Translations under genes and position numbers: made by a program
Shown: piece after piece, positions 11,495-64,000 of the stretch
How positions within the stretch are numbered: the first letter of the stretch is position 1
Layout: each line of letters starts with the position of its first letter
Source: a virus
Length of the DNA stretch: 64,000 nt
Direction: 5' to 3' (one strand)
Virus record (IMG/VR): IMGVR_UViG_3300012944_000004
The notes under the pieces: generated by a model
What the model was told of the DNA's origin: nothing
What the model saw: the letters and a program-made list of their open reading frames with translations, nothing else
Database searches by the model: none

Positions 11495-12895
11495 TCAGGG
11501 AGGAAGCCTCACCCAGCGAGCCACGTCCTCCGCCCCCACGTCGCTTCCGTCTCCGCGCCGTACCCCGGTCTTGACCAGCGCGCTTGCGATGCGCGCCGCG
11601 GGGATCCCCATAGCCGCGAGCGTGCGAACCTGGCCCGTAACCCACAGCATGTCGAGAGGTGCCCCATGACGTAGAAAGTCCGGCTTGCGAACGAGACGAC
11701 GGTTCACCAACCTCTGCCCTGTCGCCGGATGTTCAACTTTTTGCGAAAGGAGTGTTGCATCTTCAACTTGAAGAGCTAGTGTCTCTACCTGCGCCACTGG
11801 CAGTGGCTGCCCCCCCGGCCCTGTTGGTGGCGCCTTTTTTTCGACGTGTTCGCGGACGGTCGCGGTGAGCGGCTTCTTCATTGCATCTGCCTTGGTTGTT
11901 GGGGCTGCATCGAAACCCCACCCCTCGAGCGTCCCAACGGCCTTGTCCGCGGCAGCAGCATCTCGACGATCGTAGCGCACCGTCGTCGCAACGTTCTTGT
12001 GTCCCATCAGTTTCTGCGTGCGCGCCAGATCGCTCTTGTCGAGCATGCGCGAGGCGAAGGTGCGGCGAAGATCGTGCGGGGTGAAGTGCGCGCAACCGGC
12101 GCGTTGACCCGTCTCGGTGATGAGGTACCAGACGTCCTTGACGCTCATGGGCGCGTCGGTGAGATACGACTTTCCGGCCCCTTGGACGAACAGGCGATCG
12201 GTCTTCAAGCCCAGCTTCGCGCGGACGATCAGCCAGCGAGCGATCGTCTCACCTGCCCAAGCCGGAAGCGTCTGGACGCGTTCCCGGTGGCCTTTGCCAT
12301 CGACTAGCAGGTGCGTCTTGTCGTCGGAGAGCGACTGGGCCCGCAGCAAGGCCAATTCCTCGCGCCGCAAGCCCCCGCCAAGGGCCGCGGCGAAGACGGC
12401 CTCCACCATGGGTCCCCGGGGTGGCTTGAGACCTCTGGCATAGGTCGCCAGGCAATGGATCTCGCCTTCCGTGAGCATCCGTCCCGCAGGGGGACCATCC
12501 CCCTTGACGCTCGAGAGCAGGATGGCCCGCTGGTAGTCCTCCGCGGTCATCAGGCCCATGCGAAACGCCTGCCGAAGCACACCCTTGAGCATGCTGATCG
12601 ACAAACGTGCGGTGGCTGGCGAGAAGTCGCGGATGAGGGCGCTGCGCAGATAGGTCGTCTGCTCGGCCCGCAAAGCTTCCCATGGGAGAGTCTCCCAGTC
12701 GGGCTCGCGCAGAAGCTTGGTGAGCCTCTTGAGGGTCTCGACGGCCGCCTTGCGGCTCTGCCAGGTTGTCAACGATGCGATGTAGAGCTCCGCAGGCGAG
12801 ACCTTGAAGCCTTGACGTTGGCGGTCGAGAACCGCATCGGCCGAGACGATTATGTCGGCCATCGTGTGGCCTGCCATTTCGAAAATGTCTCGCAT
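11495..12895 (-). CDS. Tyrosine recombinase / integrase with C-terminal extension
   Basis: Catalytic residues R (GLRREEL), HxxR (HDLRRTFAS), H (LMGHKN), Y (TTVRY). Confidence 0.92.
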   Translation of the reverse strand: MRDIFEMAGHTMADIIVSADAVLDRQRQGFKVSPAELYIASLTTWQSRKAAVETLKRLTKLLREPDWETLPWEALRAEQTTYLRSALIRDFSPATARLSISMLKGVLRQAFRMGLMTAEDYQRAILLSSVKGDGPPAGRMLTEGEIHCLATYARGLKPPRGPMVEAVFAAALGGGLRREELALLRAQSLSDDKTHLLVDGKGHRERVQTLPAWAGETIARWLIVRAKLGLKTDRLFVQGAGKSYLTDAPMSVKDVWYLITETGQRAGCAHFTPHDLRRTFASRMLDKSDLARTQKLMGHKNVATTVRYDRRDAAAADKAVGTLEGWGFDAAPTTKADAMKKPLTATVREHVEKKAPPTGPGGQPLPVAQVETLALQVEDATLLSQKVEHPATGQRLVNRRLVRKPDFLRHGAPLDMLWVTGQVRTLAAMGIPAARIASALVKTGVRRGDGSDVGAEDVARWVRLPP

Positions 12896-28305: not shown

Positions 28306-28826
28306 CCTTTCGCGGGCGCTTTGAACAGACGAACGGTGGAAGCGATCTGCCCGACGACGTAGGCAGAGCCCACGAAGCCGGCGACAACCGCGGCGTACTT
28401 GATGGCCGTCATGACCGTCGGATCGAGGGTCTTCTTGTCCTCGGGCGGCTTGGTGTTGGGCGCGACGAGGGTGCAGTTGAGGGCTTCGACTTTCTGGCCC
28501 CACTCGTAGAGCTCCTTGGTGAGCGCCTGGGCGTCATCGGCTGTGCGCCCGTCGCCGCCACCCACGTGCGTGCTGCCATCGGGCGTCACCGTCGTCACCC
28601 AACCGAAGTCGGTGGTTGCGAAGCGTGTGAGGCGCCCCAGAAACTCGTTCCAGGCAGCAGCGATGTTCGCTGGAAGCGTAGTGCATGCCTTGATCGCGAT
28701 ATCGAGCGCCTTGGCGTGCTGGAGCATGTCGTTTTGGATCTGCTTCAGATCCCCAGGTAGCCAGTTCTTGCCGAAGACGGTCTGCGCGACGACAAGCAGT
28801 GCGAAGATGGAAGCGACGATGGGCAT
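28302..28826 (-). CDS. Helical protein with N-terminal signal/anchor and C-terminal TM
   Basis: Start MPIVASIF coupled via TGATG; C-terminal YAAVVAGFVGSAYVVG. Confidence 0.65.
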   Translation of the reverse strand: MPIVASIFALLVVAQTVFGKNWLPGDLKQIQNDMLQHAKALDIAIKACTTLPANIAAAWNEFLGRLTRFATTDFGWVTTVTPDGSTHVGGGDGRTADDAQALTKELYEWGQKVEALNCTLVAPNTKPPEDKKTLDPTVMTAIKYAAVVAGFVGSAYVVGQIASTVRLFKAPAKG

Positions 28827-30025
28827 CAGCGTTTCCTTCGAGGACGCGACTGGCCGAATACGTACACAACGCCCGCCACCGCGCCCGCGGCAATGGCCCA
28901 TCCGGTCAACTGGCCGAGGCTCATCGCAGAGTCGCCTGGCGGCTTGCCGTTGAGAGCCGCTGTGCCGTCGATGATGGCCTGGCGATAGAGCGCGAGGTTG
29001 TTCTTGGCGATGGTCTGCGCCTTCGAGGCGATGGCCGCTGTTGCCGCAGTCGCAGAGAGTGCCTGGATGTCGCCGTTGGAGAGCCATGCCTGGTGGGTGA
29101 AGGGCTGCGTCGTGGGCGCCGCACCGGCCGCGTCGATCTTGGGGCCAACGATGGTTGCGCCGGCCTGCGCAGCTGCCTGGTAGGATTGCACTGCAGAAGC
29201 GAGCTCCGGCGGCGAGGCAGTGAGGTAGGTGTCACCCGCGTCGATGACGGCGGCCACCTGGTTGCCCAGATCGGTTGCTGCGCTCGTCATCTCCGCAACG
29301 CTGCCAAGACGACGCATACCGACCTCTCGCTGTGGAAGGCGACCGAGAGTCACTTTCGGCATCACAAGCTCCCCATCGAGGATGTCGCGCAGCGCCCCCA
29401 GGTACCGCGCGCGTCCGACGGCGACTAACTCCACATCGCGCACCCCAGCAACGGCCAAGTTCTCCTTGCCGAACGGGTCGATGCGGTATTCGCTCACCGC
29501 GCGCGGCTTCCAGCCCACCGGGTTGTTCGCCGAGTTGAAGTTCGAAAAATCCGTCGCGAGCCACGTCCCATCGTCATCCTGAATCTCAAGCAGGACATGA
29601 TCCGTGTTGGAGTCGAAGTGCTGCACCAGCAGCCGCACCGGGATGCCGTAGCCGGTGCCAAGCCAACCGAGCGTCGCTGTCCCGTCGTCGCAGTCGCCCA
29701 CGGGGATGCACGCCGCGGCCCCCGGCACGCACAGCGTGATCATCGGGTTCTGCACCGTCTCGGTCATGTGCGCGTCCGGCCGATACCGGACGTTGTCGCG
29801 CACAAAGTCGAGGAACGCCTGCATCGCCTGGGCGTTGGTGAGGCGCGCATTGGGCGCGTAGCCAGCCTGCTGGATGATCCCTTCGGCGAACTGGCGTGCG
29901 AGCTGGTTGTGCCGCGCCTCGTGGATGTACGAGATGACCTTCTCGATGGCCTTCTCGGGGCCCGCGGCGCCGGCCGGGTAGTCCTGCCGGCTGACCGACA
30001 GTCCGGAGATGGTGGGCATCGCCAT
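28826..30025 (-). CDS. Transglutaminase-like (papain-fold) Cys protease with C-terminal TM and basic tail
   Basis: VRYRPD, GDCDD (Cys), DHVLLE (His), WLATD (Asp); tail WAIAAGAVAGVVYVFGQSRPRRKR. Confidence 0.8.
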   Translation of the reverse strand: MAMPTISGLSVSRQDYPAGAAGPEKAIEKVISYIHEARHNQLARQFAEGIIQQAGYAPNARLTNAQAMQAFLDFVRDNVRYRPDAHMTETVQNPMITLCVPGAAACIPVGDCDDGTATLGWLGTGYGIPVRLLVQHFDSNTDHVLLEIQDDDGTWLATDFSNFNSANNPVGWKPRAVSEYRIDPFGKENLAVAGVRDVELVAVGRARYLGALRDILDGELVMPKVTLGRLPQREVGMRRLGSVAEMTSAATDLGNQVAAVIDAGDTYLTASPPELASAVQSYQAAAQAGATIVGPKIDAAGAAPTTQPFTHQAWLSNGDIQALSATAATAAIASKAQTIAKNNLALYRQAIIDGTAALNGKPPGDSAMSLGQLTGWAIAAGAVAGVVYVFGQSRPRRKR

Positions 30026-58640: not shown

Positions 58641-59361
58641 GTGATCTGCGAAGCCTGCAAGCAGCAAGGACTTCGAAGCACCGTCACCGAAGGCGGCTCG
58701 ATGTCCACGCTGATGCACTGCCCGTCGTTCTACGACGAAGACGGCAAGCTGCACACCCACGACAGCAACGTGACGACGCATCGCTTCCGGTGTTCGAACG
58801 GCCACTCGTTCAGCACGCAGTCGCGCGGAAGCTGCTGGTGCGGATGGGGGACCAAGTGAGCGATCTCGTAGACAAGGCCCTCGCCGCTGCTAACAAGGAG
58901 TTCGCTGACGACGTCAACGACTTCGGCGATGTGGGCTACTCACTCAAGCTCGCGCAGGAAGCGCTGCAGAGTATCAAGGACAGCACGTGCAAAAACTGCA
59001 AGCACTGGGTCTTCCCAGCTAACTGGGGCTCCATACCGAGCAAGGGCGAATGCACCACAATCGTCCAGCGCTTCTGGGAGCCAGAGAATGATGCCATCGC
59101 GCTTGCTGTTGTGCAACGCGACGGACTTGGAGCTTGCCTTCGAACCGCAGCGGAGTTTGGCTGCATCCTCTTCGAGGCCAAGTGAGCGCCCGCGCACGCT
59201 ACCGTCCGTGGTTTTCCGTTCGACAACTTGAAATCAACGCCGAGCTCTTTTGGGAGATGGTCGGCTACGAGCTCCACTACTTGCGTAGCCTCGAGATCAT
59301 GTCGCCGAGGCCTCTTGTCTGGATGCCTGCCGAAACGCAGCCGCCCTGGTACACAAAGTGA
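58641..59361 (+). other. Three small genes (58641-58859, 58856-59185, 59182-59361), Cys-rich
   Basis: GTGA overlaps; CEAC, CKNCKHW motifs. Confidence 0.6.
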
Positions 59362-60590
59362 CCCTCCAAGCCTCCGCCTCCAAGTCCGAGCTACTCATCC
59401 AGTGCGCCCGGCCCTTCGAAGACGGCATCACCACCGACGACGAGGCAGGCGAACCGGCCCGGTATGGCAGCGCCTTCCACGAGCTGATGGAGCTGCCGAC
59501 GTGGAAGGTCAACGTGCTGACACCGGTCGTGCTCAAGATGGAGCGCAAGTGGAACATTCCCGGCGCTGCCTCTGAGCTCGTGGGCCACGTTCGCGCTGCG
59601 CGACGTCTCCTCAAGCGTTGGATGCGCGGGGAGAACCAGTTCAACATCAACTTCGCTGCCGGCAAGGTCGAGAACGAGGTTGCCTTCGCGATCAACCCGC
59701 ACGAACTGACGGTGAGGCGCATCGAGCTGCCGAGCGTTGAGGACCACGTCTACCAGGATGTCGATGCGCTCGTCGAGATCCCAGGGACTGCAGACCGGAT
59801 CACCAACTTCCCGCTTGTGATGGATTACAAGACGGGGAGAGACCCGTTCGATTTCTTTACCGTCCCGGAGGATGTGTCGCAGTTGAGGACCCTCGGCGTC
59901 GCCGTGTGGCTAGAGACACGCGAGCGCGTCGATGTCTTCGAAGAGGAGGTCATTCTCGCCGTCCTGCACACCCCTCGCGGCTCGATGCCAGCCATCTACG
60001 CCGACGCGGTCTCCGTCAAAGACCTGCGAAAGCACGCCCAGCAGCTCAGCGAGGCACTCGCTCGACGAGGCGACGGGAGTATGCGCCGTGGCCCCTGCTG
60101 CCGCGTGTGCTCCGCGCGCTACGACTGCCCGCTGCAGCTCTCGACGTACATCAAGGGCGCCGGTGAGGCGCTCGAGATGGCTCGCAGCGCTGGGATCGAG
60201 CTCAAAGACCTCGTCGAGTACGGCCGCAACGACTTCGAGTTGGTGCGCGGCGATCCACCGCAGATCTTTGACCAGGCAAGCTCCGCGATCGTCACCTCTG
60301 ACGACGTAGGCAAGTTGCACTACTTCATCGCGCAGTTCGATCGCCTGCAAGGGGCTGCCCAGTCGCTGATGAAGCAGTGGGTCATCGACAACACCGGCAA
60401 GGACGTCGCCGTGCGCCCCGACGGCAAGGTGCTCGTCATCAAGACCAAGGAGCAGGAGAACCTCTCCAAGGCGTCGATCATCCGCGCACTCGGCAAGCTA
60501 CGCGGCGAAGCCCTGATTCAAGAGCTCCGAGAGAACGGCGTCATCGAGATGACCGAGCGCACCGAGCTGCACGCGGTCGACGACAAGTAG
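59358..60590 (+). CDS. Cas4/AddB-like PD-(D/E)XK exonuclease with Fe-S cysteines
   Basis: SASK...QC; GSAFHE; GTADRI; VMDYKTG; GPCCRVCSARYDCP. Confidence 0.85.
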   Translation: MTLQASASKSELLIQCARPFEDGITTDDEAGEPARYGSAFHELMELPTWKVNVLTPVVLKMERKWNIPGAASELVGHVRAARRLLKRWMRGENQFNINFAAGKVENEVAFAINPHELTVRRIELPSVEDHVYQDVDALVEIPGTADRITNFPLVMDYKTGRDPFDFFTVPEDVSQLRTLGVAVWLETRERVDVFEEEVILAVLHTPRGSMPAIYADAVSVKDLRKHAQQLSEALARRGDGSMRRGPCCRVCSARYDCPLQLSTYIKGAGEALEMARSAGIELKDLVEYGRNDFELVRGDPPQIFDQASSAIVTSDDVGKLHYFIAQFDRLQGAAQSLMKQWVIDNTGKDVAVRPDGKVLVIKTKEQENLSKASIIRALGKLRGEALIQELRENGVIEMTERTELHAVDDK

Positions 60591-60591
60591 C

Positions 60592-60738
60592 TTACCGACC
60601 AGGGGTCATCATGAGCATGCTGCCCGCGTCCGGGATGCTCGCGCCCCCGCCCAGCGTGAGCTCGCGCACTGTTCCCAAGCGTGTCAACTTCGGCGGCGAG
60701 TACGGTTTGCGCGGTGGTTTGTCTTTGTCTGTTTCCAT
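60592..60738 (-). CDS. Lasso-peptide-type RiPP precursor (29-aa leader, 19-aa core)
   Basis: SD AAGGAG; leader YSPPKLTRLGTVRELTL matches YxxPxLxxxGxxxxxTx; core GGGASIPD(8)AGSMLMMTPGR with Gly1 and Asp8. Confidence 0.8.
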   Translation of the reverse strand: METDKDKPPRKPYSPPKLTRLGTVRELTLGGGASIPDAGSMLMMTPGR

Positions 60739-60761
60739 GTTCCTCTCCTTTTCGAAAGCCT

Positions 60762-63700
60762 TCAGTTGTAGGAAGCTTCGGCAAAGATCGTCATATCGAT
60801 CGTTCCGATTGCACCCACGGTAATGCCGCACGTGAGCGTTATAAACAATGTGTTGGCCATGACGCCGATGTTGACCGTCCCGCGGATATTGGTACCAGGG
60901 GTAAAGCTGGTGTCTGGGACTATCACGGGGGTCGTTGGGGTTTGCATCAGACCCGCCACGTTGTAGCTGCGGCATATCGTAACAACACCAGTCGAGTTCG
61001 CACTGGCAACGGCCGAGCCACGCTCAATCCATGTGTCCCCTTGCGTCTCGCCTGAATTGGCTGTGGCAACCTTCATTGTGGACCAGATGTCAACGTACAT
61101 CCCTGCCAAGCTAGGCAATGGGATGGCCAAAGTGATACCTGTATTCACAACGGAGATGCGCCCAAACTGGGAGTACGGGACTTTCTTGGCAAGTTGTGTG
61201 TTGATCGATCCCCCCACAACTGGATTGAGCACCCGAATCGCCTGGCCAGTTGGGAGATTCGAGAAGCCGTAGACCAGCGAGGGCGCTGCGAAGTTGGCTA
61301 GGACGAGCCCACTCTTGAGGTTGCCGCTCGCGTCGGCGTTGGCCAAAAACCCTGCCGGTGCCGTGACGGACAAGATCATCTTCTCGTTCGCCGATGCGTC
61401 GGTCGACGCCAGCTCCACTTGCGCAGGCGTAACGTCAAGCTCGTTGATCGCCGTCCCGCCAGGGTTGGTCGACGTCACGCGAAGCCCTGAAGTCCCCGAC
61501 GAGAGGTTCATCGTCGTGGCTGCAGGACCACTCTGTGCGAGCGCGGAAATGCCCGCTGGGGCCACTGCGAACGTTGTCGGAGCGCCGCCACTGGTCGCGC
61601 TCAATCCGACATTGCCAGTTCCCTGATTGATCTGCGTGTTGGCAGCGCCTGCCGCGACCTCAGTTGTGATCAACGTCGGTGTGACATTGACGGTACCGGT
61701 GTTGGTCCCATCGGTCGCGTTGGTGAGCACACCCGCCGTCGTCGCCGCGACGAGGTTGTGGATCGCTCCGCTTTGCGCCTCGATGGCTGCAACACCGGCT
61801 CCGACACCCACAGTGGCGACGTTGGTCGCGTCGTGCATCGCCGCAGTCGAGGTGTCCATCGACAGCGACGTGCCGCCAGCCACTACGGCATTGAAGGTCC
61901 CCGGCCCTGCAGTCACTGCGACGGAGTTGGTGCCGTCGGTGTTTGTGATGTTGACACGAGCGTTGTTGACATCGATGCCGCTGATGTCTGGCCCCGAGAT
62001 GGCCGTCATCTGCGCATCGTTCTCGGTGACGACGAGGTTTGCGCTCCCATCGTTGGCAGCGATGAAGGCGCTGCCCTGCGTCACCTGCATCCGGAAGTTC
62101 GCCGACACCGCCGAGATGTTCGATGGCTGGACGTTGAAGGTGACTGCCGCCGCTCCAGCGCCCGCGGTGAAGGGAGGCCCACCGACGCCCGCGGTTCCGG
62201 AGGCTCCAGTGGCGCCTGTGACGCCGGAGATGCCCGGAGTGCCGCTGGCGCCAGTCACACCGGTGACCCCTTGCGCGCCGGAGCCCGAGACACCCGTGAC
62301 GCCCGTAGTGCCGGTGGTCCCCGTGATGCCGCTGAGGCCCGTCGCGCCGACCGGTCCAGTGACCCCGGTCGCGCCTGAGGGGCCGGTAGCGCCTGTCGTT
62401 CCTGTGACGCCTGAGATGCCCGTAGGTCCACCAGGAGCTCCCGAAGCGCCAGTAGTGCCGGAGACGCCCGTGGGGCCCATCGCGCCCGTGGTGCCCGCGC
62501 CGCTGACGCCCGTGGCGCCCGCCGGTCCCTGCACCGCGCCGACGACCTCCTTGATGATGATCGAGAGCCGCCCTGCGGTGATGGCGTTGCCGCCAAGGGT
62601 ATCGGAGAGCACCAGCTGGAAAGCCACTGGCGTTCCGAGCGCCTGCGCGCCGCATGTTGCGACGAGCGAGAAGGTCATGAAGTTGCCGGTGGGGCTCACC
62701 TCCACGGCAGTCGACAGGATCGTGAACCCAAGGCCGACGCCCGTCACCGATAGCGGTGAGCCTGCGGCGTACTTGAGAGCTGCTCCGCCAGCCGTTCCGA
62801 TATTCGTTGCGGAGCCGCCTGAGAGCACAAGGCTTGTGCCCGTGACGAGCGATGCAATCAGCGAGATCGCATCGGCGGCTGTGGCTGCGTTGAGCTTGAG
62901 CGTCCCATCGATCTGAAAGATACCGCTCGTCTGTGGAGTCACCAGCGCCGCTGCGATGGTGGTCCCCGTGCTGACGGTGAAGTCGCTGAGGGTCACTTGC
63001 TGTTGGGTGAACGCCGCATTCGAGGGGGCCGTCCCAAGGGCCCCAGTGGCCCCCGTTACGCCGCTTGGACCCGAGGCGCCTGAGGGTCCCGTTGTGCCAG
63101 TGACGCCCGTGTTGCCCGTCGCGCCAACGGGACCTGTCGAGCCAGAAGCGCCGCTGACTCCTGTTGGCCCTGAGATTCCGGTGGGACCGGTGACGCCCGT
63201 GACGCCCGTTGTGCCAGCGCCAGTGACCCCTGTGACGCCCGTCGGACCCGTCGCTCCTCCGCCAGGTCCGGTGGGCCCTGTTGGTCCCGTAGCGCCACCG
63301 GAGTGCAACTTGAAGTAGTCAAGTGCAACTTGAACATTGCTCCCGATGCTCGGCACCGGAACGATCCCATCGTTATAGGCGAGAAGCGCTGCCAACGTCT
63401 GGAATGTGATGTTTGGATTGCTGCCGATGAAAGCAGAGACATCAGAAACGAAAACAGTGCCGACTCCGCTTCCAGTGAAGAGATTCGAATCAGCCGTGGC
63501 TTGCGACAAGGCAACTACGTCAACTGTGGCTCCCGCACCGATGATGAAAACGGGGTTTGTCCCATCTCCGATGGCTGACGCTTCGTCGAAGTCTGCGCCC
63601 CACCGCGTTCCCACTCCAGTGAGGGAAAAGAACGGTGACGCGTAGTCGACAAGCGACGTCTGGTAGAAGAGCCCGCCGTGGAAGCCCCCCGACGTGAACG

Positions 63701-64000
63701 ACATAACAGGAGAAGAGCTCAAGCTCTGAAGATTCAAGAACCGGTACGTAGGTGCGTTGATCGTCGAGAACGTGGCCCCGTTTGCGAAGGACACAGTCGT
63801 AGAGATAGGTGCGTCGAGATCTCCGCCAATCCAAACAACATCCGGATTGGAGAAGTTGTTTGTGCCGGTGATCGTGCAGACGCCGCCATTGAGCGACCCG
63901 TCGAAGAAGATCGTGATGGGGCCATTGACTGCATTGGCAGCAGCAAAGAGCGTCGCCCACACGGTGTAGACGTTGCCGCTCGCGACGCCTCCCGGTTGGA
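60762..64000 (-). CDS. Collagen-like spike/fibre protein, over 1079 aa (N-terminus beyond window end)
   Basis: Frame open to the window edge; two G-X-T collagen blocks; long Thr/Ala/Val beta-repeat regions. Confidence 0.8.
62182..62528 (-). repeat. Collagen-like G-X-T block 2
   Basis: [10 protein letters not shown]...[10 protein letters not shown]. Confidence 0.9.
63031..63299 (-). repeat. Collagen-like G-X-T block 1
   Basis: [10 protein letters not shown]...GVTGATG. Confidence 0.9.

Follow-up and report, generated by a model that had tools for sequence, protein, structure and literature searches.

Lasso peptide leaders follow the pattern YxxPxLxxxGxxxxxTx, with Thr at position −2, and the core starts with a small residue and carries Asp or Glu at positions 7–9 for the macrolactam. 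The YxxP motif is a known RRE recognition element, and maturation requires an RRE (PqqD-like), a B2 protease and an Asn-synthetase-like cyclase. Complete RiPP clusters exist on prophages, e.g. sublancin on Bacillus SPbeta. There a temperate phage gives its host a ribosomal peptide natural product, as the virus described here may do; however, sublancin/SPbeta phages also carry the modifying, export and immunity genes, whereas in the present virus the precursor stands alone. The closest precedent that we found for a stand-alone RRE-dependent precursor is pqqA: phages of methylotrophs carry the gene of this PqqD-dependent precursor without its pathway (Coutinho et al. 2020, Microbiome 8:163, PMC7678222). 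In both cases the phage has just the small precursor of a RiPP pathway that depends on an RRE (PqqD), and it would have to rely on the enzymes of the host. PqqA, however, gives rise to a fixed redox cofactor with which the host's metabolism is boosted, whereas a lasso product would belong to another RiPP class, would have its core defined by the virus and would probably serve a different purpose. Phage-borne stand-alone RiPP precursors are thus already known from pqqA, and it is the lasso peptide that would be new here.

The same precursor family occurs in lasso clusters of Polyangiales, such as those of a 'delta proteobacterium' MAG (L001/L004) and of Labilithrix luteola DSM 27648 (L017), which are of the type methyltransferase – precursor – cyclase – HprK-like kinase – PqqD RRE – B2. 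The viral precursor is 44–70% identical to theirs and shares with them the leader, Thr at −2, Gly1, Asp/Glu8 and the Met-rich tail. In contrast to the bacterial genes, the viral one is accompanied by none of these enzymes, neither next to it nor elsewhere in the viral genome, it lies behind a fibre gene and it has a viral ribosome-binding site; moreover, its core ends in Arg where the bacterial cores very often end in Met, and its leader is shorter N-terminal to the Tyr motif than is usual for the family.

The viral ORF and the lasso precursor family

The ORF (P0001) occupies 60592..60738 (−) of the window, by which we mean the whole stretch of 64,000 nucleotides of viral DNA that was analysed. 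It comprises 48 codons plus stop and forms the end part of a 127-aa shadow ORF (60592-60975, (−)) that overlaps the 3′ end of the upstream gene. A Shine-Dalgarno sequence, AAAAGGAGAGG (60742..60752, (−)), precedes it, in which AAGGAG (60745-60750) is separated by 6 nt from the ATG (60738). This AAAAGGAGA-type ribosome-binding site is common to the precursor ORF and many confident genes of the same virus, and in the whole viral genome AAGGAG stands before only 13 of the 2221 ATGs. The GC3 of the ORF resembles that of the neighbouring genes and is higher in frame (0.76) than in the other two frames (0.58 and 0.56). The first-pass annotation, made from the letters of the window, had described the 48-aa ORF, its translation and coordinates, its place as the tail of a shadow ORF and its AAGGAG site, and all of these were exactly as described. 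Around the ORF, no terminator, promoter or RNA structure rose above shuffled controls, and no promoter of its own was found.

The leader, residues 1-29 (60652..60738, (−)), contains the complete YxxPxLxxxGxxxxxTx motif (Tyr13, Pro16, Leu18, Gly22 and Thr28 at −2). It is followed by a predicted core of 19 residues, GGGASIPDAGSMLMMTPGR (60595..60651, (−)), with Gly1 and Asp8 as the putative macrolactam site and a Met-rich tail, which lies within the lasso range (small residue at position 1, Asp/Glu at 7–9, ~15–26 residues) and for which the computed mass of the predicted lasso product is 1786.816 Da. Every motif position therefore fits, core Gly1 and Asp8 included, as had been claimed. The NCBIfam profile NF033521 (lasso_leader_L3) matched viral residues 13-31 with 31 bits against a curated cut-off of 19 (E 1.6e-7 against 18,950 models). 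A word-index protein search with the viral peptide returned only the peptide itself, and phmmer, run exhaustively against 1.84 billion representative proteins, returned 49 relatives at E<=1e-3. Nearly all of these are 45–67 aa long and read KPYxxPxLxRLGsVReLTL followed by a Gly-rich core, and the likeness to the viral peptide covers the leader and continues into the core. The closest, P0005, is 70% identical over 38 residues and has a Met-rich tail like the viral one. When 42 family members were aligned, Tyr13, Pro16 and Gly22 were invariant and Leu27 and Thr28 nearly so; the core started with Gly after the Thr-x cut site in 34 of them, and in 31 the sole acidic acceptor was at core position 8. 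The profile and phmmer statistics exclude a chance ORF. Judged by its sequence, the viral ORF is a true homologue of lasso precursors, and the description 'virus-encoded orphan lasso precursor' is supported at that level.

The bacterial relatives lie in lasso clusters. P0004, 62% identical to the viral peptide, is encoded on an 11.8-kb contig between a class I methyltransferase gene and the genes of a cyclase, an HprK-related kinase, a PqqD-type chaperone and a B2 protease, where the cyclase is an Asn-synthase-like macrolactam cyclase and the protease scores above its own curated cut-off. Scanning one genome per species (185,579 species) for the leader pattern gave 31 confirmed genome loci, all labelled Myxococcota (Polyangiaceae, Polyangiales, Labilithrix including L. 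luteola DSM 27648, and Sorangium). In nearly all of them the cyclase, kinase and RRE genes directly follow the precursor and the B2 protease is usually present; an HprK-related kinase and a class I methyltransferase are regular additions in the clusters of the family (L004-L034). A metagenome scan added 53 loci, which had the same neighbours wherever the flank was long enough and among which no genes of this virus were seen. The relatives in named genomes are all from Polyangiales, an order of the Myxococcota.

Two features of the bacterial family were seen besides. The cores in L004-L034 are Met-rich. In addition, some members carry, fused to the lasso leader, a Peptidase_S74 domain, which is known from phage tail fibres as a self-cleaving chaperone. 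Two such fusions (L024:4559-5041 (+) and L033:7956-8426 (+)) stand at the precursor position of Polyangiales lasso clusters, with Peptidase_S74 scores of 25.5 bits (cut-off 22) and 19.3 bits. In P0002, P0010, P0014 and P0028, a unit made of a leader-like segment and a short core is repeated in tandem; the first three match Peptidase_S74 through its SDxRLK start motif (83.8 bits for P0010), and P0028 matched nothing in Pfam. It looks unusual for a lasso precursor to carry a self-cleaving C-terminal domain.

The viral genome and the cassette behind the fibre gene

The source record, from IMG/VR, is a soil virus of 77,712 bp that CheckV rates as 100% complete. Its first 77 bases (1-77) recur at its end (77636-77712), and we therefore take the record as closed, although a repeat of 77 bp resembles an assembler k-mer overlap and so may indicate circular closure and not physical terminal repeats. 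The whole closed record contained no match to PF00733 (Asn_synthase), PF13471 (Transglut_core3) or PF05402 (PqqD). The first-pass annotation had seen no maturation gene in the window, which is correct and extends to the entire record; a full lasso cluster just outside the window, which it had named as evidence against its reading, was sought across the record and none was found. The combination that defines a lasso biosynthetic cluster, precursor, RRE, protease and cyclase together, is not present in the viral genome. An orphan precursor in a genome that has no knot-tying enzymes most likely depends on those of the host. We also considered a transglutaminase-like Cys protease (28826-30025, (−)) as a hidden B2 and rejected it; it gave only a sub-threshold match to PF01841 (E 0.003) and none to PF13471, NF033537 or any other NCBIfam model.

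The virus encodes a tyrosine integrase (11495..12895, (−); phrog_1, E 2.7e-29), which suggests a temperate lifestyle and bears on the reading of the precursor as cargo, and also a D5-type primase, a PolA fusion and helicases. A second assembly (ENA) is 100% identical over 12.7 kb. The window and the IMG/VR genome record differ at two single bases, 16082 (A/T) and 46040 (A/G), neither of them near the precursor.

The precursor ORF had been placed right behind the spike gene, and this is where it lies. Upstream is a gene for a collagen-repeat fibre or spike protein of 1503 aa (60762..64000, continuing to 65273 beyond the window, (−)), whose stop is 23 nt before the precursor ATG. On the other side is a convergent gene for a PD-(D/E)XK nuclease (59358..60590, (+)), whose stop is 1 nt from that of the precursor. 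With spacers of 23 nt and 1 nt the ORF is tightly packed, and no remnant of host cluster DNA remains on either side. Outside the window, directly before the fibre gene, lies a gene for a GT4 glycosyltransferase-methyltransferase fusion of 602 aa (65286-67094; L003:3645-5453) that is kept in most related viruses; this conserved enzyme suggests that the fibre is glycosylated. It was ruled out as a tailoring enzyme of the peptide because it is conserved in relatives that do not have the peptide.

Homologues of the nuclease, 51–72% identical, are found on contigs of 69–78 kb, most of which share the gene order. In six related viruses of ~70–78 kb (L035-L040), the N-terminal part of the fibre, the nuclease and, where present, the glycosyltransferase-methyltransferase gene are conserved, and between these conserved genes each virus has different large proteins. 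The N-terminal part is all of the fibre that the related viruses have in common. The nuclease stop (60590) is precisely where DNA similarity to them breaks off, to return near 64000. From 60592 to ~64000, the distal two thirds of the fibre gene and the stretch up to the nuclease gene form a cassette that differs in each relative and is probably a host-range module.

The lasso peptide family profile found no match in the six related viral loci and no second copy in the virus's own genome. Absence from related viruses had been named as counting against the reading, and on this point the result is unfavourable, as the precursor ORF is missing from all six that were examined. It is therefore strain-specific cargo, for whose function conservation cannot vouch; with one carrier virus, an identical second assembly and six relatives that do not have the gene, nothing in the comparison of viruses points to selection on it. 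The ORF resembles phage cargo genes: it is absent from the six related viruses, it lies at a module boundary (the end of the fibre module) and it has a strong viral-type ribosome-binding site of its own.

Putative host, leader recognition and the possible role of the peptide

Because all 31 genome matches among 185,579 species fall within Myxococcota/Polyangiales, Polyangiales is a plausible host clade. A search for prophages by the capsid candidate found none in 301 Polyangiales genomes, and the nuclease family of the virus was not found in 401 Myxococcota genomes. When 20 kb of viral DNA were compared with the 301 genomes, only short GC-rich matches appeared, which recurred at the same query positions. 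Cultured phages gave no DNA match, and their only protein matches were distant ones to the primase, spread across many host groups. The precursor family occurs in 44 of the 301 sampled Polyangiales genomes; with only ~15% of the genomes having the family, a given host may lack the enzymes. The lasso enzymes are patchily distributed in the putative host order.

Recognition of the viral leader by a Polyangiales RRE was modelled with ESMFold2. The complex of the viral peptide with the B1 protein of L001 scored 0.53 against 0.01 for the best control, which is in the weak range and was obtained with a B1 that resembles the solved TbiB1. Of 78 solved complexes, 51 reached the pass mark of this test, as did 2 of 108 mismatches; at 0.60 or under, the passes comprised only 5 of the 78 solved complexes and all 4 passing mismatches of 180. 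Three runs agreed in at least 90% of contacts, with a partner pLDDT of at least 54. The L001 B1 is a homologue of TbiB1 (E 2.2e-11), which has been solved with its leader (5v1u, 5v1v), and therefore the score may reflect memory of these structures and indicate only likeness. In TbiB1/TbiA the leader–RRE complex is solved, whereas that of the viral leader is a prediction.

The reading that we prefer, and which we hold to be about evenly poised between true and false, is that the ORF is a horizontally acquired lasso precursor of Polyangiales type, a stand-alone cargo gene at the end of the fibre operon that supplies a core to a host assembly line. The fibre gene and the precursor would be transcribed and translated together, or the precursor would be expressed in the prophage state. 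A host lasso cluster would provide the PqqD-type RRE (B1) that binds the precursor's leader (YSPPKL...G...T at −2), the host B2 protease would cleave after Leu29, and the host Asn-synthase-like cyclase would link Gly1 to Asp8 and trap the Met-rich tail. The product would be a virus-specified lasso peptide of 19 residues and ~1786.8 Da, which a host kinase or methyltransferase may modify further. As the peptide would be freed at lysis, no exporter is needed, and it would then act on neighbouring cells. The virus would in this way give the host assembly line a new core, much as phage pqqA gives a precursor to the host PQQ pathway. The full scenario, in which a Polyangiales virus reprograms the host lasso line so that infected or lysogenic cells make a virus-specified threaded peptide that is released at lysis, goes further, and we put it forward tentatively, as slightly more doubtful.

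Could the gene instead be passenger DNA, which came with a swapped distal-fibre cassette or by illegitimate recombination with a host and is intact because it arrived recently, although useless to the virus? Its presence in one virus and not in six relatives, within a variable and recombination-prone cassette, would be expected of a passenger, and 144 nt are too few for intactness to prove selection. However, a useless fragment need not have a strong ribosome-binding site of the virus's own type, keep all residues that are invariant in the family or be free of flanking host cluster remnant within spacers of 23 and 1 nt. A recent arrival also calls for a donor, whereas nucleotide identity to bacterial precursor genes is at most ~72–78% over 56–66 nt and is limited to the leader (60646-60713), apart from two further stretches of 23–26 nt at ~96% identity that also lie inside the leader, and the flanks are unlike; with identity so low and so confined, no sampled genome is a recent donor. 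Although not decisive, the viral-type ribosome-binding site, the clean junctions and the retention of the invariant residues speak against junk DNA, and we consider a passenger unlikely but a serious contender.

Two other roles would use the leader or the lasso-like sequence for something other than a viral product. As a decoy, which the first-pass annotation had proposed alongside the feeding of host machinery, the peptide would occupy the host RRE (B1) and lower the amount of the host's own lasso peptide, with the core irrelevant; this could help the virus if, for instance, the host peptide or its cluster is a hindrance to it. Conservation is indeed highest in the leader, which agrees with the family consensus, the predicted RRE fold lends weak support, and in one metagenomic study host lasso families are tied, through co-expression alone, to interactions with phages (PMC11118758). 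But the core still has all that maturation requires, as it contains Gly1 and Asp8, is 19 residues long and has, like P0005, a bulky Met/Leu tail, none of which a pure decoy needs, and a substrate accepted by the enzymes would be turned over and would not block them. An antiviral role of any lasso peptide was also not found in the literature searched. We regard a decoy as distinctly improbable. It is more improbable still, to the point of being hardly credible, that the ORF encodes a small virion or fibre accessory protein, or has another non-lasso role that reuses a lasso-like sequence, or is a chance ORF. Its position directly behind the fibre gene would suit an accessory protein, and the Peptidase_S74 fusions place the same leader outside classic short precursors too; against this, each of the nearest relatives of the viral peptide is a short precursor of the classic kind within a lasso cluster, the related viruses make their fibres in the absence of the peptide, and chance is ruled out by the profile and phmmer statistics.

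If the full scenario of a reprogrammed host lasso line is true, no lasso peptide encoded by a virus would precede this one, and it would also be the first case in which a virus supplies only the 'template' for a host secondary-metabolite pathway. Should the peptide be made and knotted by host enzymes, a template of ~150 nt would suffice for viruses to diversify bacterial natural products, by a route that genome mining for whole clusters would overlook. Viral auxiliary genes would then reach beyond core metabolism and cofactors (pqqA) into secondary metabolites. It would also become directly testable how far lasso enzymes tolerate precursors given in trans by foreign DNA.

Finally, we looked for comparable genes in other viruses. 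A pattern scan for the family leader found none in other IMG/VR contigs, and tblastn found no homologue in GenBank phage records. The searched literature contained no report of a phage-borne lasso precursor, and no database record of one was found; the first-pass annotation's statement that none had been described thus holds for the searched literature, IMG/VR and GenBank phages. A search of IMG/VR for lasso cyclases gave 22 Asn-synthase-like genes (L042-L063), which have no precursor, B1 or B2 nearby. Among these is a group of viral contigs of ~18–20 kb that carry an Asn-synthase-like PP-loop gene near one contig end.
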